From contig OY759599.1 of the NCBI GenBank assembly GCA_963662465.1, positions 3,008,001 through 3,072,000 on the forward strand: 64,000 bases of DNA, written 5' to 3'. The stretch is from Desulfatiglandales bacterium (GTDB lineage: Bacteria > Desulfobacterota > DSM-4660 > Desulfatiglandales > Desulfatiglandaceae). Both the position numbers and the translations under genes were made by a program. Below, in pieces: positions 20,498 through 42,598 of this stretch (its first letter is position 1; the number at the start of each line of letters is the position of its first letter). Under the pieces are notes generated by a model. It was not told the origin of the DNA. It searched no databases and saw nothing but the letters and a program-made list of their open reading frames with translations.

Positions 20498-20800
20498 TGC
20501 GACACAAAGTCGCATAGTTTGAGTGTATTTAGGTATTTACCTTGAGTACCCGGCATGTTCCTGCCGGACCCTACGCAGGCGTGCTGCCGGCGCACTGATG
20601 CCGGGGTACGAAGCCCTACGGACAACGTACCGAATTGGGTTCAAATGGTGACGGGAGAACCCCTCCGGGAATCCTCCCCCAGTTAAGGGCCAGGGTCGGA
20701 TAATATGGTGAAGATATCTGAACGTCTTTAAGCGTCGATTACAAGCACAAACTGAAGGAATATCTCATGGTCCGCCCTTGGTATAAATCCAAGCATTTCC

Positions 20801-30738: not shown

Positions 30739-30848
30739 TCTAAGGCGGGCTATGCCCGCAACCCAAGATTCTGAGATGACTCTGAGTCACCTCTTTTGTA
30801 AAATAGATGGAGCAAACAAAAACCATCCAAAAGCGAAAGAGGTGACCC

Positions 30849-30902
30849 ATGAAAAAACTTATAGAAAGATTTTCAGATCTCGTCAAGGGTAGCATTACTG
30901 GG
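30849..30902 (+). pseudogene. 5' fragment of a transposase-like gene cut by the next element
   Basis: GAGGT RBS then MKKLIERFSDLVKGSITG, interrupted at the inverted repeat at 30903; family recalled, not searched. Confidence 0.45.
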
Positions 30903-31430
30903 CTACCGACATAAGCTGGGACAAAAAAACTGGATGGTAAATCGAAGGAGACTCCTTTTTTAAATGCGAATTTGAATTTGCCTATGGTCTTTGCTGCGTA
31001 ACTGTGCTCTATTATTTTCCCACAGGTTTTCCCATTACCCACGGAGGATAATATGATGCGATCACGTAGTACAAGAATTTTTCTGAAATTATGTTGCCCT
31101 GTCAAATGCAGCATTAGAAAAATTGGGCAGATGTTAGGGATCTCGGCTATGGCCACAAGCCGGGACAATTCAGGAAGCACTCGTTCTCACGCATTGCGGG
31201 GGAATGAAAATGTGACCTGCCGGGGCACAATGAGTTCCGCGGCGACGTTTGTAGTGACGCCGTGAGGCGTTTTCCCCGGCAATGCCCTCACGGGCACACT
31301 GCAAACCTCTCCTTCAGTCCCGACACAAAAGACGTCCTTGATCGCTGTGATGATGCTCGGCATCGTGAATGAAAAATCAAGAAAATCAAGGTTCAAACAA
31401 ATGAGAAACTATCCCGCCTTATGTCGGTAG
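30903..31430. mobile_element. Non-autonomous element bounded by about 20-bp terminal inverted repeats
   Basis: CTACCGACATAAGCTGGGAC vs reverse complement of right end CTACCGACATAAGGCGGGAT; no intact transposase, no clear target duplication. Confidence 0.65.
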
Positions 31431-31448
31431 TCCGTTTCATGGGTCAAT

Positions 31449-31618
31449 CCCGGATGGCCACTTCAAAATCTCCCACCTAGGAATCAGATTTTGGCCTTGG
31501 ATGGCGGATAAACAACTGTATGTAATGATCTATTTTCTTCTTCATCCCTGCTAAGTGACATAAGGGGTGGGGGAAAAATAAGTGGCTACAAGTGGGGGAA
31601 AGTAGGTGGCCGCCCGGG
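31449..31618. mobile_element. 170-bp MITE with IS21-like ends and 6-bp target duplication
   Basis: CCCGGATGGCCAC...GTGGCCGCCCGGG, repeated GTGGGGGAAA at right end, GTCAAT at 31443-31448 and 31619-31624. Confidence 0.75.
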
Positions 31619-31782
31619 GTCAATAGCAATCCTGTCCATCATTTAATCTTTCAAATCGTGTTCAAAGATTTTGTCCCGGCTTGTGACCGTAGCCGGTTCG
31701 TCATGCGTCAAGGTTTTTTTAGCATAAAAAACCGCCCAAAGGCGGTTAAGGGTGTATAGGCAGTATGGAATATTATTTTATT

Positions 31783-32178
31783 TCATGTGGTTTTTGATAA
31801 TGCATCAACTTCTTCTAGAATCTTATTTGCTGTCCATATGGCTTTCGTTGCCATGGCGATTGGGCTTTGACGTTTAATGGTATCGTAATAATCAGCGGTC
31901 ACCCTGTCAAAATGAAAAGATTTGAACCGGGTGGCAATCTTCCTTCTTAGTTTATCACCTCCATTTTGGAGATAATCTTGAAGATCACTATGAGAACCAC
32001 CTCTCCTGTATTCAAAATTTTCGGTCTCTTTTAGAATTCTGCAGGTCGTGCAAAAAGCCGCATAATAGGCTCTGCTAACGGAGGCACGACAACACGCTTC
32101 TTTATCAGGAAATTTGTCTAAATTCTTCGTAATACATTCAGCGAGTTCAAGGTATTTCTTCCAATCGAAACCCATCAC
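31783..32178 (-). CDS. HEPN domain protein
   Basis: FDWKKYL, RASVSRAYYAAF, RVTADY. Confidence 0.85.
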   Translation of the reverse strand: MMGFDWKKYLELAECITKNLDKFPDKEACCRASVSRAYYAAFCTTCRILKETENFEYRRGGSHSDLQDYLQNGGDKLRRKIATRFKSFHFDRVTADYYDTIKRQSPIAMATKAIWTANKILEEVDALSKTT

Positions 32179-32979
32179 AGCCCCACGAATTCGATATTGA
32201 AGCTCACGACATTCGTTTTGAGATCATAATCGTTATCAATATACCACTGCTCGAATTGATCAAAAAGCCTCATGCCTTCGTCCATTTCCCCAAACCACTG
32301 TATCCAGGCCACCAAATTCGGATTAGAATCCGGGTCCGGCATGACATCAACGACAATATTGAGCGGAACTCCGAAAATGCGCCTTATTTCCGGACCACAT
32401 TGTGTAAAAATAGTCCCTGGATCAAGATGCTCAGGAAGCAGAGCGCCTTCAGTTCCATATTTTTCCAGCAGTTCGAGACTCATTTTTTTGTCGGCATCTC
32501 TAAACAACGGTCCAATCTCTAATGGATGTCTTTTTTCCATAATCTTGTGCCACATGCATATATATTCCTCGAAATCCACCTTCTTGTTTAAAATGCAAGC
32601 CATTTCAATTGCTACGTTTATACATTCCGAATCAAGGGGATATTTTTCATATGCCTCTTTTGCATATTTGTAGGCATCCTCCATTAACTCAAGGCTTTTC
32701 AGCGAAACAATAAAATTGAGGACATGTTGTAGCGAACTACAAGACTGCTCGATTGCCCTTTTGAAAAAGCTCTTTACATTTTTTTCGTCTCCAACGAGAC
32801 ATGCAATCATACCCAAGAGAGAAAATCCCGAGGCCACATCAAAATTATTTTTGACGTCTTCAGCTTCCTTTTTGAGTCGAACCAAATCAAAGGAGGTATG
32901 ATTACGAGTCCCAGCAAAATGGTTCAATTCATAAATCAAACGACTATACTTAGAATTTAGAGCTGGTACGGAATACATT
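32175..32979 (-). CDS. Helical/TPR-like hypothetical protein coupled to the HEPN gene
   Basis: Long low-GC ORF, TPR-like helices (AYKYAKEAYEKYP), ATGA overlap with HEPN; start uncertain. Confidence 0.65.
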
Positions 32980-34248
32980 TTTTTCTTCTTTAATTTGTTA
33001 TTCGTAAGGGTGAAATTATCCCAAACGATTTCACCATCGTCAAGAGAATTGTGAGAAATCTCACAAAGCATCAAAGAAAAAAAGTGAAGATCCGCGGGAA
33101 ATCGTGTTGTGAAAATTAACGGGACTTGGTGTGACAAAAGAGTGTTTAAGAGGTCGTTCCTGATTTCCGGTTATCTCCTACCCGCGCTTCAGCTCGGAGG
33201 TTTATCACTGGTTTCGTGCCCGCCGCTGGACTTGTCTGAGGTCTTCTTTTAACTGCTCGTATGCGGGCGGGACCTCCACTTTTCCATAACCTCCGCCGCC
33301 CGTAGGTCAGGTTGTCTGGAAAAATTTCCATCTATTGTCATATTCAGACCTCGTTAGAATTTTAAAAGAATGAAGAGTAAACGTATCTCTTCTCACATAA
33401 TATCTTCGCGCTCTTGCTATGGTTCTGCCTATAATCCACTTTTTGACTATGAAAACCATCATATAGGCCGAAAATCGGGCACAGTTATCATCCTATTGTC
33501 AATCATTCTAACCCATTAGCTTGGTCCGACCCCCTGCTGGACACCCCCTGCCGGACTCTCTTATGGCACCGGTGAGTGATATGCCAAATGTACCCCGGAA
33601 TAAAATGTCGCTTTGTTCTTGCCATGATCCCAAGAAAAACGGACTTTTTGATCTCGAAAAGATCAATATAGCCCCGTTTTAGAGGGGTAAATAAAATATA
33701 TTTCTTCGTATATTAAATGCTTACCGTGGTCCGACCCCATCCGAGACTGCTTGCAAGCCGCAGACCTGTTGACTCTAACATATCTCCGGCATCAAGTTCA
33801 TAAAATATACACCAGAAACCCGGCAATGGGCAATTTTTCTCCTATATCCCTGATATATGATTCACATTCTCGCCAGTCCGTGGATGTGTTCGCCACTTTC
33901 ATGCCTCCATAAATTCGGTTTTACCATGCCTCTAGCCTATCCATATTTCCCCATCGTGCGCTTGCAGCGCCCGGGATAAACCAATATTGACGTAATGGAT
34001 GCACCAATATCCGGATGTTGCGATAGGTCTGCTGCTGAAATTCACTAAGCGTCTCGAGGCCAGGTTCCTGGTTGGAATAAATTTTCAATGAAATTTATGA
34101 GAGAGCATGATAATTACTTTTCATCCCCTCAGGGCCATAAGCGAATCTTCAGCCGAATGCCATGCGGAGGCCGGGATGGTGATAACAAGCTCGGAATTGG
34201 CTTCAAAATTGGTCTGATAATGAAAATTATAAGAAAATATGCCGAGGT

Positions 34249-36343
34249 ATGTTGATGGAACCATCGTATATTTACCACTCGAATCTCTTCAATTCCACCT
34301 ATTTTGAACGTGTTCTTTCCGACGAGGCCTTTCCCCGTAAGCGGGAACTGCCGTCTGAGGCGCAGAAACGTTTGGAAAAACTGATCGGACTCTGGCTTTC
34401 CGTTCGCCATGAGTTTGTAAAAGATTTACCGGAAAGCAAACATAAACCTATCCCATGTGTTGGATTGCCGCCTTCTCTCGAAATGAAGTCAAAAGCCATT
34501 GAAGACAGCGTTGAAAACGAATTCTTACTGCCGCTTTACGAAAAAGTGTTGGGCTTCGCATGTAAGAAACAACAGTCCATGGAGTTGACGGGGCTTTCAA
34601 AAGAAATAAAAAATCGAACCAAAAAACCTGATTTTGTCATTTTTTCAGATAAAATGAAAAAAAAGGCTGCCTTGGACCTTGTTGGTAAAACAAAAAAAGC
34701 GGTTTGTGCGCTTTCATTTTGATATACATTCCAGCTTCAAATTTACCGCCTTGACGTTTTCCCGCGAAACACCCGAAGAAGGGCACTCGTTCCCCGCTGC
34801 CTTCATGCTGCGGGACACCCAGGTGCTGGAAGGGAAAATGCAGGAGCGGGTGCTGTATTTGAGCCGGGACTTCATTACGGCCATCAGCCCCGAAAGTCTG
34901 GCCCTGATCGACAACCGTTCCGACATGGAAGTGCGGTTGATTGAACGGCTTCATCAGAGCTTCCCAGCCCTCGGCAGTGCGGATAGCGGCTGGAAGGTAA
35001 CCTATCGCACGGATTTGCATATGACCAATGACGCCTGCTTGTTCAAAACACGTGGGTGGATGGCAGCCAGGGGATTTACCCGCTTCCGGCCGGAAAAAAA
35101 TGAGGAGGGGCAGTGGGTTCGAAAAAAGCATCCGGATTCCAAAATTGTTGTTTTGCCGGATGATTTGCCCCAGGGCGGTGAGTACTGGGTATCCGCCGAT
35201 GAAAACTGGTATCGGACACGCGGGTATGCGGAACGGCAACAGCATTTCAACGGCAAGGAACGGACGGTTTTCTACCACCCGGATGACAATGCAAAAAAAG
35301 ACGGAAAGGGCAATGACCCCAACCGAATTCTCCCCGGCGAAATCTATTCTCCGCTTTATGAGGGCCGGATGGTTCACATCTTTGATCATTCCCAGAAAGG
35401 CTATGTTTCAGGAGAAGGCCGAAAGGCCATTTGGCAAGAGCAGGATATGGAGCGGAAGGTGATTACCCCCCGCGTTTTTGTCAGCAAGGTTGATGCTGAA
35501 AAGGAGGCGGATGATCGGATAGGCTTTTGTGACGTGACCGGAGCAACGAATGAGAGAAGTATTCTTTCAACAATAATAAGCGTTTATGTCCTTTGTGGGA
35601 ATACGGTTGCCACTTTGGAAGGGCTGACAGCAAAAGAAAATCTGATGCTTTTATCTATTTTTGCTTCTTTCTGTGCGGACTATTTAATCCGCCAACGCGT
35701 AAGCCTCCATTTGAACTGGACGTATGTTTCTAACCTTGTGGTTCCAAACTGCAGAGAGACAGCCGAGGACACAATAGGCGATTTAGCCCGTAAAGCCGCA
35801 ACCCTGAGCTGCACCACCCCGGAACTAGCGGAAGCATGGAATGCCGTGTTCCCTGAAGATCCCTGGACGTATGAGAGCGCGGAGCGGGATTTATGGAAAC
35901 GGGCCGAACTCCGGGCTGAGATGGATGCCATGGTGGCTGAGTTGTATGGTTTGTCCGTGGAGGAATACGCCATGGTCCTGACCGGTTTCCCCCTTCTGGA
36001 CCGGGGTCAGCCCGCCCTGCCCGGAGATGCCTTTCTGACGGAGGGGGATGAAAAATCGAAAAAAGGGGTGGAAGGGGAAAATTGGCTGGAAAGGGAGTGG
36101 GGCATTTTTGAAATCAAGCCGAGAAGCTTCATCACCCGTGATTTTGCCCTGCTCACCTACATGAAGCGAAAAGCCTATCCACTGCCGCAGGATCTGAGCG
36201 CATGGTTCCGGGATAAGGCAGGCTTGAATCCCGAGGGCCCACTTTCTCGCTTTACGATCGGGACTGTCGTGGATCTGGAGGAGCGGGTTGCACTCGCCGA
36301 AGAAAAAGGGGCGATTCCGTATGTGCCCTCCACCCGTGGTTAG
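34249..36343 (+). pseudogene. Type IIG (Eco57I-like) restriction-modification gene remnant lacking the methyltransferase core
   Basis: N-terminal fragment 34249-34722 joined out of frame to a C-terminal part with FDIHSSFKF, PLYEGRMVHIFD, ATNERS, RAELRAEMDAMVAELYGL; no DPAxGSG or NPPx motif. Confidence 0.7.
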
Positions 36344-36369
36344 AAAGGAGCAGGATATTGGATTGGGAA

Positions 36370-38167
36370 CAGCAATTCCCGCTTAGATTCTAAAGGCGCT
36401 AGGACAGTACCTTTTGGCATTTCCTTTTCGTAAAGCTTTACGTTGAATGAATAGCCTGAAAAGGCTTTTTTCTCCAATTTTTAAAATAAAACAGGAATTT
36501 TTTTGGCAATTCTCAGAAAAAGCTGGACTTTCAGATCAACTTGGCCGATGATTACTGCCTATGGGAATCAGAAGCCAAAAAGGAAGAAAAGAGAGAGGCA
36601 AGATTGGAGTTCGCAAGCATCTTAATGCAGATGCAATTTTCAAGCGTCTGCATAAAGATTTTTCTGAAGTCTCTGACTGCCGTGAGGATCCCGATATTAC
36701 TATTGCGGATGCCTTGATGTCCGGGTTTGCAATGTTTTCGCTCAAGGAGCCATCGTTGCTTGCCTTTGATGAAAGAAGAAAAACCGATAGTAATCTTGGG
36801 AACATATACCATATTGGAAAGATCCCATGTGACAGTACGATGCGCACCATTCTTGATGAAGTGCTCGCAGAAGAACTTCGGAAACCGTATAGGAATATCT
36901 TCTGGGAACTGCAAAGGGGAAAGGTGCTTGAACGTATGGTATTTTTCGAAGGTTGTTATCTTCTATCTTTGGATGGAACGGGTTTCTTCTCATCGAAGAA
37001 ACTTTCCTCTGATAGTTGTTTGGTAAAAGTATCGAAAAAAACCGGCGAAAAAACCTATTATCAGCAGATGTTGGGGGCAGCAATTGTCCATCCGGATTTC
37101 AAAGAGGTCATTCCGCTTGCTCCGGAATTCATAGTCAAGCAGGATGGCCAAAGCAAGAACGACTGTGAGCGTAATGCCGCGAAACGTTTCTTGCAAAAGC
37201 TAAAAGAGGAGCATCCCCATCTGCCTATCATTATAACAGAGGACGCGTTAAGTTCGAATGCACCCCACATTGAAGAAATACAAAAGCAAAATTTTCATTA
37301 TATTCTGGGAGTTAAAAAAGGAGATCACCATTTCTTGTTTAATCACGTCGAACAAGCGCGGATAAATGGTGACGTCACTGAATTCGAATTGGTCGATAAA
37401 GAGGATCCGGAAAAAATACATCGTTTCCGATTTATTAACCAGGTACCTCTCAATGCCTCTAACAAGAATATGCTGGTTAACTTTCTGGAATATTGGGAAA
37501 TTACACCGAAAAAAACAAAACATTTTAGTTGGGTGACAGATTTTTTAATAGGAAAGGACAATGCATACCAGCTAATGCGAGGCGGCCGTGCGAGATGGAA
37601 GATCGAAAATGAAACCTTCAATACTCTTAAGAACCAAGGATATCATTTTGAACACAACTACGGGCTCGGCAAGAAGAATCTGAGTGTTGTTTTTGCGATG
37701 CTCATGATGCTGGCATTCTTGGTGGATCAAACTCAACAGCTTTGTTGCCCTCTATTTATAGCCGCATGGCATAAACTCGGCTCAAAAAGGGAATTGTGGG
37801 AACGGATGAGAGCTTTGTTTAGAGATTTTGAATTCAAATCGATGAGGATGCTCTATGAAGCCCTCTATTATGGCGTAAAGTTTCAAGCGCCAGTTATTCT
37901 ATATAACAGTGGTTAAATTTGTCATGCCCAAGTTCGCATACAAAAATGCTCTCATTAATAAAAAACTGGAGATTCCGGAAATGGATATCTCTGCCCTAAC
38001 TCGTGCTTTTATGCTCTTACTCTTGTCAAAGAAGCTCAACCTGCAAGAAATCGAGGGAGGTAATAGTGGATTTAATACAATTTTTCTGAAAAGGATCTGA
38101 TCTCAGGGTTTGTTTTTGAAATATGTTTTTCAAACTCTGTGAGTAAATTCTTGACCGGGAATTGCTG
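36370..38167 (+). mobile_element. Intact insertion sequence (ISNCY/ISDol1-like) with 9-bp target duplication
   Basis: IRs CAGCAATTCCCG / CGGGAATTGCTG; GATTGGGAA at 36361-36369 and 38168-38176. Confidence 0.9.
36561..37916 (+). CDS. DDE transposase
   Basis: LSLDGTG, KNDCERNAAKR, ITEDAL, RARWKIENETFNTLK. Confidence 0.92.
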   Translation: MGIRSQKGRKERGKIGVRKHLNADAIFKRLHKDFSEVSDCREDPDITIADALMSGFAMFSLKEPSLLAFDERRKTDSNLGNIYHIGKIPCDSTMRTILDEVLAEELRKPYRNIFWELQRGKVLERMVFFEGCYLLSLDGTGFFSSKKLSSDSCLVKVSKKTGEKTYYQQMLGAAIVHPDFKEVIPLAPEFIVKQDGQSKNDCERNAAKRFLQKLKEEHPHLPIIITEDALSSNAPHIEEIQKQNFHYILGVKKGDHHFLFNHVEQARINGDVTEFELVDKEDPEKIHRFRFINQVPLNASNKNMLVNFLEYWEITPKKTKHFSWVTDFLIGKDNAYQLMRGGRARWKIENETFNTLKNQGYHFEHNYGLGKKNLSVVFAMLMMLAFLVDQTQQLCCPLFIAAWHKLGSKRELWERMRALFRDFEFKSMRMLYEALYYGVKFQAPVILYNSG

Positions 38168-39025
38168 GATTGGGAATATTTTTTGGATAAATATAGAGGA
38201 CGTCCGGAAAAAACGCTTTTTCATTACACCACTATTCCAAGTTTTAACGGAATTCTGGGTGATAACTGCCTCTGGGCCACCGATACCCGCTATTTGAACG
38301 ACTTGGAAGAATACCGGCATGGGGTAGCACTTTTTCAGGAAGAACTGAAAAAAGTGGCGGAGAAAAAGGAGAACCATGACTTTCTGGTCAATTATCCGGA
38401 ATGTATTGATGAACTATTGAATGTGAGGACCCGGCTTGATGGGAAACATACCTATTGTGTTTCTTTTACCGAAAACGGAGACATCCTCAGCCAGTGGCGG
38501 GGCTATGCCGGTAATGGCGGCCTCAGTATCGGTTTTGCTCCTGAAACCTTGTCATCCTCAGCAAAAAACCAGGGGTTTCGTTTTATGAAATGCCTTTATA
38601 ATGAAATAAAGAAAAAGGCTTTTGTTCATGAAGTGGTTGATGACTTTTTATGGCATTGTGATAAATGGCATAATAACGAAGCGCTCGATCATTTTACTCC
38701 GACACATTTTGGCGTATATTTGAGATCCATGATTTGTTTTTTTTCTCCGGTGCTGAAGCATGAAGCATTTGATGAAGAAGAGGAATGGCGTGCGGTTTAT
38801 AGTTCCGGCCACCTTCCTAATGAGAAGCTATCTTCACACAAATCTAACGAAATTGACATTCCACATGCTGATTTCAAACTGCAGGATGTAAATGTACAAA
38901 AAATCTATATCGGGCCTTCTAACAATATTGACAGAGTTTATCTCAGAATTCTTCATACATTGGACTTAAGGAAATTATCCCATATATGCGAGAAGTCGCG
39001 CATTCCTTACAGAGGTTCGCTGTAA
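38162..39025 (+). CDS. DUF2971-like protein; native start separated by the IS
   Basis: LFHYTT, YLNDLEE, DILSQWRGYA, KHEAFDEEEEWR, IYIGP, SRIPYR. Confidence 0.8.
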   Translation: MLDWEYFLDKYRGRPEKTLFHYTTIPSFNGILGDNCLWATDTRYLNDLEEYRHGVALFQEELKKVAEKKENHDFLVNYPECIDELLNVRTRLDGKHTYCVSFTENGDILSQWRGYAGNGGLSIGFAPETLSSSAKNQGFRFMKCLYNEIKKKAFVHEVVDDFLWHCDKWHNNEALDHFTPTHFGVYLRSMICFFSPVLKHEAFDEEEEWRAVYSSGHLPNEKLSSHKSNEIDIPHADFKLQDVNVQKIYIGPSNNIDRVYLRILHTLDLRKLSHICEKSRIPYRGSL

Positions 39026-39067
39026 CGTGAATCAATGACGTTGAAAAATATTTGAGGAAAATTTCAA

Positions 39068-39982
39068 ATGGACCTTGATTATGATGAAATGGAAAAAAGC
39101 GGGATTAAAGAGGAAGATTTTGAAATGGCTGTTCGAAAAGGCGAGACAGATTTCATCGCCTATGCGGTTAATATGTTTAACTGGGAGCCTGGCATATTCC
39201 CGAATGGCGGTCACCCGCTTTCCGTCGCGTGCGAGTCTGGATTTCTGGATGTGGCAAAGGAGCTGGTTGTATGGGGGGCCGACATTCACGACAAGGGTGA
39301 AGAACTGCCGACCCCGTTGATTCTCGCTGCCCAGAACGGCCATTCTCATATTGTTTCCTGGCTGGTGGAAAACGGAGTGGATCTCAACTATCACCATGAA
39401 GAGATCGACGCCAATGGAGACTGGGAATGGAGCGGATCCGCACTGGGAGAAGCCATCAGGTATGAACATCTGGATATTGCCGAATACCTGATGGACAAGG
39501 GTGCGGATATATCCGACAGTATTTTAGCGACATTTGAAGACCCATATGGCTTTCCGGGCCATATGATTTGCAAGACTTCATATCCCATTGTCGAATTTGT
39601 GAAGTGTGAGAATTACTATCTGTTTAATAAGGCTGTCAAACTGAATGCTCTGGAAAAGTTGCCGCAAGAGGATCAGAAATCTTTATTGGAAATATGCATC
39701 CGCAAAGGAAGGCTCGATGAAGTCCGCTTGATAGCCGGAAAGCTGCCAAAGCTTTTAAATCAGTGCATGGAAACAGAAGACCAAAATTTTCTGTTTCCTC
39801 TGGAACTTGCCGCGATCAATAAAAACAGCGAAATGCTCGAATTGCTTCTCCAAGAAGGCGCAAGTCTGGGAATACGTAATGAGGACGGAACTTTCATATA
39901 CGTGTCGATAGGCGAAATTTGGCCTGAAAAGGCTGTAGAAATTCTTTCAGCCCTTGCAAAAGAAAATACGGCTGGGTCTTGA
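39068..39982 (+). CDS. Ankyrin repeat protein
   Basis: TPLILAAQNGHSHIVSWLVENGVD, SALGEAIRYEHLDIAEYLMDKGAD. Confidence 0.85.
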   Translation: MDLDYDEMEKSGIKEEDFEMAVRKGETDFIAYAVNMFNWEPGIFPNGGHPLSVACESGFLDVAKELVVWGADIHDKGEELPTPLILAAQNGHSHIVSWLVENGVDLNYHHEEIDANGDWEWSGSALGEAIRYEHLDIAEYLMDKGADISDSILATFEDPYGFPGHMICKTSYPIVEFVKCENYYLFNKAVKLNALEKLPQEDQKSLLEICIRKGRLDEVRLIAGKLPKLLNQCMETEDQNFLFPLELAAINKNSEMLELLLQEGASLGIRNEDGTFIYVSIGEIWPEKAVEILSALAKENTAGS

Positions 39983-40214
39983 TAAACACGTTTATGTAAA
40001 ACCGTTTATGCGTTTATGAATTCATGGGCAAAACCGTACCGTGCAAAATAAGAACGAAAAAAGCCAACAGCAAAATCAATGTCCTACCTTGTTTCCACGC
40101 TGCTGTATGAGAGGCCCCTTACTCCCCTAGTTTCCAGAGCATCAACAGGCCCATTCTTTCATGACCAGGGCTGCTGTGATTCCGTGCCTGGCCTCCATTA
40201 GTTGGGCGTTCTCC

Positions 40215-40243
40215 TTGACTTTGAAAAGCAATGGCTTTATAGT
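40215..40243 (+). promoter_or_regulatory. Near-consensus sigma70 promoter
   Basis: TTGACT-17 bp-TATAGT with no credible downstream ORF. Confidence 0.75.
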
Positions 40244-40249
40244 TCTCAC

Positions 40250-40560
40250 CTCAAGGGGATATCCGCTGCGTAGGGGGGCCACCCTGGCCTGAACAGTCGC
40301 GGGTAGCTGGTCCGTGAGCCGTATCAGCCGCTGTCCTCTGCCTCTTCCGGGAAAAGGAGGCCGGGACTAAGCGGTAATAAGCCTATGGCCCGCCGGACAG
40401 CAGCACCGGCGGGGTGAAGGACTTATGTCGCACGAACCGGAAAGCCTGCTCACTTTTCCCCATCCTGGGCTTTGCTCTTGTAGTTCGACGTCTGCATCGG
40501 GGGGCCCACCCTGTCAGACAGGTGCAGATGGGCCGGATTGTGGGCGATCCGGCCATTTTA
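40250..40560 (+). ncRNA. Candidate structured ncRNA, about 310 nt, resembling an IS110-family bridge RNA
   Basis: Promoter and terminator flanks; GGGGA(40255)/TCCCC(40461) closing stem; helices CCGCTGTCC/GGACTAAGCGG, GCCTC/GAGGC, CCCGCCGG/CCGGCGGG; family resemblance is from memory only. Confidence 0.55.
40531..40560 (+). terminator. Intrinsic terminator-like hairpin
   Basis: GGCCGGATTG-TGGG-CGATCCGGCC followed by ATTTTA. Confidence 0.6.
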
Positions 40561-40624
40561 ATACTATTTCTCCTCCCAGTTTCAACGCCCTCTCCAAGTG
40601 ATCATTACTCCATCTCCATTCGCT

Positions 40625-40963
40625 CTATTCCCATTCTTTCTCATAAAGGTGCACATGCCTTCTAATCTCAAGGTCGGTTGGTTTGCCGTGGATTTCAAGG
40701 AAATTGACAAGAAACCGCCTGACCCTGGTCTGATAAAGTTGGTCAGCTCCTTTGTCTTCTGAAAGGACCCTAAGGAGTGATTCGAGTAACATGGGTGCGA
40801 GATGGGGCTCCTGTTTTTCTTCATGAATGCCGCAGCATTTCACTTGATCGTAGAGCTCATCGCTTGTCCAATGAGCGTGAAACATTTCTTCGGAGCCAAA
40901 ATGATCGAGAGCTTTCTCCCTGGCTCCTGCTTCATATGTGTTTATGGAGCGGGAATAACCCAC
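40625..40963 (-). CDS. Hypothetical protein
   Basis: 112-aa ORF right after the upstream gene; no motif; start uncertain. Confidence 0.4.
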   Translation of the reverse strand: MGYSRSINTYEAGAREKALDHFGSEEMFHAHWTSDELYDQVKCCGIHEEKQEPHLAPMLLESLLRVLSEDKGADQLYQTRVRRFLVNFLEIHGKPTDLEIRRHVHLYEKEWE

Positions 40964-40969
40964 CTGCCC

Positions 40970-41377
40970 TCAGTTTTTTTTGTTAGGCCATCGAAACAAC
41001 CACCACATTTCCTTGTTATCAATTGAGGCATCATGGGAACTTGCATCCGCTACGGTTAATTCCTTGAATCGTTGATCCGCCGCCAAAATTCGTTCCTTAA
41101 ACGGTTCGATTTCCGCTTCGCTCGCATATTGCATCACATCATAAAGTGTTTCTCGTATTGAAAGGTCATTAAGATATTCTTCACTTGTATCATCGAAAGG
41201 TATCCATTCAATAACATCTTCCCAGTCCGCAACATACGCCTCAATCCCGTTTCGCTCGATATCCCGAATTTCCGAATCCTTGCATCTTGTCAACAACAAA
41301 TGCTCTATTAACGGTGAGACGGTTCCGTTCTTTGCAAGATACCGCTTAAGCCGCATTTTATCCCTATACTTAGTCAT
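40970..41377 (-). CDS. Hypothetical acidic protein
   Basis: GAGGT RBS and ATG at 41377; EEYLNDLSIRE...ADQRF...WWLFRWP. Confidence 0.6.
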   Translation of the reverse strand: MTKYRDKMRLKRYLAKNGTVSPLIEHLLLTRCKDSEIRDIERNGIEAYVADWEDVIEWIPFDDTSEEYLNDLSIRETLYDVMQYASEAEIEPFKERILAADQRFKELTVADASSHDASIDNKEMWWLFRWPNKKN

Positions 41378-41737
41378 GTTTCCAACCTCACCAGATAGTC
41401 TCTTTCCCGCACATTTTCCATCCCTGGCAGAATCGGATTTGCAAACCCGGCAAATCATCTTCAGCAGAGTTTTCAGCAGGTCAACGATCAAAGAGAAGAT
41501 TATCCAGCATGCGAAGGCAAAAATCGCAGTAATGATGATCGCGATCACTATTCCCAGAAAAACCTCCAAAATGTTCAACCCCCTAAATATTCGCGAATGA
41601 ATCGCATTTACCGTTTTTCCAGCTACACAACCTCCGGCAAAAGGAGGTGGAAGGGTTTGTAGTATGTTCCGTAAGGGCATTGTGTCTGCAACCCGCTGCT
41701 CCCCATCCGGCAAACGTCACGCCACGTGAACGGTTGC

Positions 41738-42415
41738 CTAAAAGTTCAGTCCCGGCACATCAATGTAGAGACCCGGGCTCCCAAAAAGAAGTTCGGCGAT
41801 AGTCGGCTTCCGGTCCGGTCCGTAGATAACCCTTTCATGCTCTCCTATGGGAGTGATCAGGTCGTCCACCCAATCGACCTGATCCATGAGGTTTTCGTAG
41901 AGAAAAATGGAAAAACCCCGGTTTCTCATGCAATCAAAAATAGGATGGCAGAATGGTAAGAGCGATACGGGTATCCTGTTCTCTTTGACAACGTTCACCC
42001 TGCACTCGCGTCCCTCGCCTTTACCATGGGAATTTCTTACATTCCAGTAATGGGCGGCATAATCTCCAAGCCAGCTCACCTCAATAAAAAGAACCCATAC
42101 CACCCCGCCCTTGCTTTTCACAAAGTCATGGTCCTCATATTTGTCGTTCGCATTCGGGTATTTGACTATGCCGGTCTTCTCCTGAAAGTAAATCTCGCAC
42201 ATTGTAGCGTGGGCATAGTAGTCATGCTGATAATGACGACCATCGTTTTCTAAATGGTATTGGCCCCCTGTGACATGGGCCAGACTCTGAATTACCGCAT
42301 GGTACTTCTCAGAAGGTGGAGGGCATCCGTTGATAGCCGCAAATCGGATGTCTTGTTTCATTTTTTCGAGCAATTGTTTATCCATTGGGAGCATCCATGA
42401 TAATGAGATTTTCAC
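41738..42415 (-). CDS. Hypothetical protein
   Basis: 225-aa ORF with protein-like composition; start uncertain. Confidence 0.6.
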   Translation of the reverse strand: MKISLSWMLPMDKQLLEKMKQDIRFAAINGCPPPSEKYHAVIQSLAHVTGGQYHLENDGRHYQHDYYAHATMCEIYFQEKTGIVKYPNANDKYEDHDFVKSKGGVVWVLFIEVSWLGDYAAHYWNVRNSHGKGEGRECRVNVVKENRIPVSLLPFCHPIFDCMRNRGFSIFLYENLMDQVDWVDDLITPIGEHERVIYGPDRKPTIAELLFGSPGLYIDVPGLNF

Positions 42416-42598
42416 TTGGCGAAATGGTATTTGCCTTTTATACTAATAGCATTGCCGGATCATCATCGTTGATTTTTCGAATAATATTTCGTAGCTTCAT
42501 GGGAAATTTGAAGGTAGGCGCTTGTGGGTAGAACACTGTCAATAAAGCACTGCATGGGAAAACCAAATTAGGGATTTTCAAAGTGGAGGGCATACAAA

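Follow-up and report, generated by a model that had tools for sequence, protein, structure and literature searches.

What does a GC-rich stretch encode when promoter-like and terminator-like signals frame it and no gene is evident within it? This question is raised by positions 40215-40560 of the window, by which we mean the whole 64,000-nt stretch of a Desulfatiglandales bacterium genome that was analysed here (genome positions 3,008,001-3,072,000). The original prediction saw in it a free-standing structured RNA resembling the bridge RNA of IS110 elements, and offered an orphan guide RNA or a new RNA class as possible identities. In this study, our results part these two ideas from each other. 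The stretch is not an IS110 bridge RNA and the idea of an orphan IS110 guide finds no support, and what stands is a structured, free-standing RNA of a family absent from Rfam 15. Based on the homologs that we describe below, we consider it probable that the stretch is a small-RNA gene, and that the family to which it belongs is borne by mobile elements.

The signals that had been read in the sequence are where they were said to be. On the forward strand, a sigma-70-type promoter-like site, TTGACT-17-TATAGT, lies at 40215-40243 (10/12 matches to the consensus in the promoter scan), a core of 207 nt is limited by GGGGA at 40255-40259 and UCCCC at 40457-40461, stable local helices and a further hairpin are found, and the terminator scan places a GC-rich hairpin of 10 bp at 40531-40554, 3' of whose stem the T-rich tail ATTTTAAT can be read at 40555-40562. 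The AT-richer surroundings were also borne out, the GC content being 0.585-0.605 at the locus (stretches of 200 nt starting at 40200-40300) as compared to 0.35-0.48 in most flanking ones, and the locus ranks 4th in GC among the 1306 ORF-free segments of the genome. The remaining 19 of the 20 most GC-rich segments comprise 11 group II introns and 8 segments without an Rfam match, and these eight (G000:C1 at 2624755, 7288, 403870, 91960, 162858, 4330799, 8151598 and 2802842; loci L092, L093, L095, L096, L102, L105, L107 and L110) are candidate unknown structured RNAs. The promoter-plus-terminator pair is not significant when taken alone, because its genome-wide rate is about that of chance: a strong terminator lies 100-450 nt downstream of 13 of the 1648 promoter-like sites, with about 10 expected (a figure derived from random positions, 18/3000), and the local promoter scan returned one site in 1.7 kb with 2.0 expected from shuffles. 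tRNA operons make up 3 of the 12 promoter-plus-terminator units in this genome, so these signals are used in this organism. The decisive support for the locus is homology and covariation.

That no credible ORF would be found proved correct as well, and the stretch is non-coding. The longest ORF from the -10 hexamer to the terminator has 18 aa, and 3-base periodicity is absent at the locus (p 0.56) and in each of its sub-parts; among neighbouring coding stretches of equal length, 5/5 gave p <= 0.006. None of the 18 translated frames of the locus has a paralog in its own genome, and with neither periodicity nor paralog we discarded the idea of a pseudogene. A 94-aa open frame at the locus matches only two tandem-repeat proteins among 1.84 billion.

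Known RNA families were considered too, and no covariance-model match to Rfam 15 supports any of them at the locus, where a search at E <= 10 returned four chance matches. At gathering scores, the only match in the whole window is a group II intron at 20549. Its 5' part (RF02012, 66.8 bits) occupies 20549-20690, opposite-strand ORFs follow directly, domain V/VI has no match anywhere in the window, and the intron is probably truncated or interrupted. As an identity for the locus itself, group II intron domain V/VI (RF00029) was rejected, since none of its 54 genome matches falls at 3,048,200-3,048,570 and the domain V sequences differ. The tRNA and tmRNA identities were tested and rejected, and 6S RNA, for which RF00013 has no match in the genome at E <= 0.001, was set aside in view of the strain-specific island and the branched fold; a tmRNA at 8,081,765 and an RNase P RNA at 5,160,271 were seen in the same genome. 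We also discarded a CRISPR-repeat mimic (an RNA anti-CRISPR of the creA-like kind), the best local alignment to host repeats, 14/17 and from one of four tests, being reached by 19/500 shuffles. Three CRISPR arrays were noted in the genome (590,450; 1,267,237-1,270,858; 7,638,422-7,639,809), the last with a 28-nt repeat that is presumably of a type I-F-like kind, and long runs of the heptamers GTTTTGG/GTTTTGA occur near both ends of the one contig (G000:C1 near 86,289-101,180 and 8,160,950).

The first homolog lies in another genome. BLAST over 400 genomes of the phylum gave one 27-nt match of 93% identity, in a genome that we call G256, and the order of parts there (TTGACC-17-TATACT, a short leader, a hairpin and a second GC-rich hairpin) is that of the 5' end of the window RNA. 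The stem of the G256 hairpin differs from the window's and its loop is nearly identical; the promoter spacing is 17 nt in both, and the distance from promoter to hairpin unit is nearly equal. We derived a covariance model of 74 nt, R2, from no copy but that of G256. Run unfiltered over the 64-kb window, it gave exactly two hits, one of 48.1 bits (E 7e-10) at 40259-40332 and one of 24.5 bits (E 4e-4) at 40487-40557; the next best had E 0.69. The window RNA therefore comprises two tandem copies, A and B, of one module. This module of about 72 nt consists of a covarying stem of 7-10 bp, and an inner stem of 4 bp with a conserved G-rich loop around UAGGGGGGCC(C)ACCCUG; a GCCGG...CCGGC hairpin completes it on the 3' side. 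A further model, R3, built from copies A and B and the G256 copy (it gives A 82.3 and B 71.9 bits), matched 2/150 genomes of a phylum sample centred on G256 and 5/119 genomes in the family of G224. On re-scoring at E 0.01, genomes G642 (44.3 bits), G621 (41.1), G619 (35.7) and G224 (33.5) were retained, each relative's genome having one match; a match of 34 bits in G703 failed this threshold, sits in apparently coding sequence and was dropped.

The alignments indicate that the module's stems have been kept while their sequence changed. With three copies, 96.6% of 59 cells are paired and both sides have changed in 10/20 pairs; with seven, 94.8% of 134 cells are paired and both sides have changed in 12/20 pairs, among which are all 7 pairs of the outer stem. 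None of 500 shuffles of the seven-copy alignment was as good, and slid structures were 37-47% paired. These seven copies come from six genomes, the window contributes two of them, the four lowest scores are 33-44 bits, and the pair counts lean towards the model because the alignments were fitted to its structure, which was taken from one member. Searches with larger or looser queries returned little. The whole locus had no match in its own genome or in 60 relatives, and none in plasmids, phages or E. coli genomes, and in 209 genomes of the class it gave matches of at most 37 nt, two of which looked coding on inspection. Model R1, which describes the three-way junction of the core, found only itself in its own genome, 150 genomes of the class and 150 of the phylum. 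Two-anchor junction patterns gave 0 viral, 9 metagenome and 8 genome matches, all by chance, and in viral contigs the loop patterns picked out the G256 prophage alone. Around the locus, short repeats, whether direct or inverted, do not exceed the chance level.

The fold of the window RNA is best described by its parts, in which the two direct copies stand 228 nt apart with two hairpins in between. As a whole its predicted stability is ordinary (z -1.2 to -1.5; -1.35 and -1.24), and the local helices are stable (z -2.7 to -4.2; -2.67 to -4.17), with pair probabilities of 0.88-0.99. Within copy A, hairpin HP-A (about 40263-40303) carries the conserved loop and is followed by a local GC hairpin at about 40305-40327. 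This last competes with an alternative long-range stem in which 40299-40316 pairs with 40431-40449 (pair probabilities 0.78-0.96) and which would close a three-way junction (z -2.67 for 40305-40440). The hairpins in between, P2 (40327-40375; pair probabilities 0.89-0.98, z -2.75) and P3 (40377-40426; 0.88-0.99, z -3.90), are specific to this locus, model R1 having matched no homolog of this middle part in the genomes named above or in 32 IS110 loci. Copy B (fold z -3.60) contains hairpin HP-B at 40489-40530, and its GC hairpin with the U-tail is the terminator.

The settings of the relatives are of several kinds. The G256 copy belongs to a Mu-like prophage, a phage that is also an IMG/VR contig; the unit stands there in antisense orientation, flanked by the genes for MuF-PBECR2 and Gp36, and its second hairpin has no U-tail. 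The product of the MuF-PBECR2 gene (L123, 216-1469) joins a Mu F-like head protein to a PBECR2 nuclease domain, and it is the 3' end of this gene to which the unit is antisense. A further 19 loci of Mu-like phages that have Gp36 homologs carry a different intergenic element at that spot and lack the unit, so the unit behaves like a moron. In G642 and G621, the module stands directly 3' of the gene for a P4-type tyrosine integrase, shares its strand and has no promoter evident to the eye, and the next feature after it is an int-alpA RNA (RF02996; 53.7 and 52 bits). This RNA motif reportedly comes from a motif survey of 2017; in one paper that uses it, the term int-alpA denotes the gene order int-alpA-pri and not the RNA. 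The weak copy of G224 fills a 167-nt interval within a CRISPR array of 61-nt period (L152, G224:C1:1106442-1109515; 28-nt repeats), where a promoter-like site, the weak module and a terminator are seen, all antisense to the presumed direction of the array. The G619 copy is neighboured by ORFs without a family. U-runs follow the second hairpin in copy B, G224 and G642. We considered a conserved mini-ORF that would cover the loop and dropped it, since the differences between copies alter amino acids and G224 loses the frame, as read by eye.

The window locus itself lies in a strain-specific island of 11.7 kb (30739-42448), as seen by comparison with G010, a genome of the same genus, where only 7 nt separate the two flanks, in two copies. 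The locus is placed between convergent genes, an ankyrin-repeat protein gene upstream on the same strand (39068-39982) and, on the opposite strand downstream, a gene for a 112-aa protein without a family (40625-40963). The island also contains a DUF2971 protein, several family-less proteins, an IS4-type element (DDE_Tnp_1; 36350-38167) and, adjoining it, the C-terminal fragment of a type IIG restriction-modification gene (34679-36343). In sequencing runs the IS4-type element has a contig depth of about 10x that of its surroundings, and its end is repeated in same-genus genomes. In contigs of two sequencing runs, the 3' end of the ankyrin gene recurs as a diverged copy that extends to 40181. 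The sequence CGTTTATG occurs three times in close succession at 39983-40018, directly 3' of the ankyrin stop codon and about 200 nt upstream of the RNA promoter; these copies could be a protein-binding site. The 112-aa neighbour has no close relative among genome contigs, partial matches in 1/400 phylum genomes and no likeness to the MuF-PBECR2 protein, and an Atlas search with a 225-aa neighbour gave no usable match. Neither an integrase nor an alpA gene is found near the window locus, and an integrase is absent among the island ORFs scanned.

With these settings in hand, the proposed kinship with IS110 can be judged. According to Durrant et al. 2024 (PMC11208160), a bridge RNA is defined by two prominent internal loops and is encoded in the non-coding end that adjoins the recombinase gene, and the same paper indicates that it is active when supplied in trans in the laboratory. 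An orphan bridge RNA (or seekRNA, in IS1111) that works in trans with the single IS110 recombinase of this genome would be conceivable on that footing, and the motif resemblance noted in the original prediction pointed the same way. Neither BLAST, nor model R1, nor the fold, nor the neighbours of the relatives supports it. As had been stated beforehand, no DEDD_Tnp_IS110 or Transposase_20 gene is present in the window; the genome has one complete IS110 copy at 5.363 Mb, about 2.3 Mb off the window, and one weak fragment (PF01548 at 5,363,032 and, weakly, at 1,958,728; the sole PF02371 match at 5,363,833). BLAST of the candidate against 32 IS110 loci of the same class gave only matches of at most 20 nt with E > 3, R1 reached a best E of 4.2 on them, BLAST at word size 7 found no match in the genome's own IS110 locus, and BLASTN found none to the locus in E. 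coli genomes. The loop segments of a bridge RNA are complementary to the donor, meaning the ends of its element, and to the target, around a core common to both, and this locus has neither element boundaries nor a donor. Sixteen related IS110 elements (L002, L060-L086) have AT-rich left ends, unlike the candidate. The left end that they share starts CGTTATATA, and in it the ribosome-binding site of the recombinase gene is paired within an invariant hairpin, whose 7 pairs are the same throughout and do not covary. Rfam 15 has no match on an IS110 locus either and is therefore unable to test bridge-RNA membership. Minimum-energy and pair-probability structures, both single-sequence predictions, give P2 and P3 internal loops of only 1-2 nt, and the modelled fold thus appears to be without the two-internal-loop architecture. 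Furthermore, the relatives of the module adjoin P4-type tyrosine integrases or sit in a Mu-like prophage and never adjoin IS110 genes. The window locus is not an IS110 bridge RNA, the contrary reading being close to refuted, and a false lead is removed.

Three other explanations have to be set against a small-RNA gene, and they draw on the same observations. The module could be a 3'-end cassette, namely an intrinsic terminator joined to a stabilising hairpin and placed after genes by mobile elements, and the window would then hold two terminators and a chance promoter with no RNA function of its own. The copies in G642 and G621 lend themselves to this, because integrase-linked copies that start after the gene on its own strand, without an evident promoter, may mean a 3' end element and not an RNA gene in its own right; the U-runs seen after three second hairpins agree, and terminator stems also covary. 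Nevertheless, we hold the cassette to be unlikely, as termination does not require a conserved loop sequence, the window and prophage copies share a promoter of 10/12 consensus matches at the same spacing and nearly the same distance, and the prophage module runs antisense to its flanking genes with a second hairpin that ends in no U-tail. It is quite unlikely, in our judgement, that the module is instead a DNA site for attachment or recombination and that the window copies are leftover attL/attR-like direct repeats around a decayed remnant. Its position at the 3' end of a P4-type integrase gene in 2/6 genomes, the direct duplication in the window, the interrupted CRISPR array and the copy between prophage genes would all suit such a site, but pairing that is kept through changes on both sides speaks for a folded strand and not a shared att core, each relative's genome has one match and not two flanking copies, and the position of the promoter is conserved. 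The remaining explanation is a relic without function, in which foreign GC-rich DNA lies in an orphan-gene island and matches a promoter and a terminator by chance. The chance rate of such pairs in the genome, an overall fold z that is not significant and an island that is strain-specific and rich in family-less genes are consistent with a relic. Homologous modules with covarying stems in distant genomes, together with a locus that bears no trace of coding, make it very improbable.

The small-RNA gene is the explanation that we retain, and its workings can be sketched. Transcription would start near 40250 from the promoter-like site and stop near 40556, yielding a transcript of about 305 nt. 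Its recognition surface may be the conserved G-rich loop, which would either bind a protein or pair with a target, and since two copies of the module are present, we propose that the RNA is bivalent. It would act in the service of its carrier element, a role also supposed for the int-alpA RNA beside the relatives. Our guess is that integrative or phage elements most likely use it as a regulatory RNA that acts in trans, and any particular target is to be credited with much less confidence than the gene itself. A bolder idea, speculative and doubtful in our own eyes, is that the module represents a new class of mobile-element RNA and a distant kin of int-alpA, a promoter-bearing cassette that moves between elements with no relation to each other (P4-type integrative elements, a Mu-like phage and an orphan-gene island) and has even entered a CRISPR array; the control of integration or excision, or of host defence, would lie with the protein or nucleic acid recognised by its loop, and the window would show a doubled and expanded version of it.

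What the analysis provides is a concrete motif, for which there are a covariance model that works, compensatory base changes and genomic settings of four kinds. This motif of a small RNA of mobile elements is new relative to Rfam 15 and akin in kind to int-alpA. The structured RNAs of phages and integrative elements are poorly catalogued, and several of them have proved to be regulators or guides.

In comparison with known systems, the window RNA has in common with the IS110 bridge RNA (IS621) and the IS1111 seekRNA that it is a structured non-coding RNA of a mobile element with a sigma-70-type promoter, those RNAs being 150-250 nt long according to PMC11208160. Unlike them, it has no adjacent DEDD recombinase, no predicted pair of large internal loops and no similarity to IS110 ends. 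The G256 module, self-contained, equipped with its own promoter and placed between two late genes, can be likened to phage morons and to the small antisense RNAs of temperate phages. These antisense RNAs include the OOP RNA of lambda and the CI / C4 RNA of P4, and the C4 antisense RNA family is in Rfam; the window locus differs in that it is matched by neither C4 nor any other Rfam family. The closest comparison is with the int-alpA RNA, itself a candidate small-RNA motif of integrative elements. The two are distinct: the module lacks the second inner hairpin of int-alpA and is followed by a separate GC hairpin, the window locus has no integrase or alpA gene nearby, and RF02996 (gathering score 35.8 bits) has no match at E <= 10 in 39950-40750, its matches in this genome being only those at 156,442, 1,253,947 and 3,799,454. 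Nevertheless, both are borne by mobile elements, and the int-alpA consensus (outer stem, UAG, small hairpin, CUG, stem, U-run) resembles, by eye, the first hairpin of the module. This link makes the role of integrase-side RNAs a testable question.
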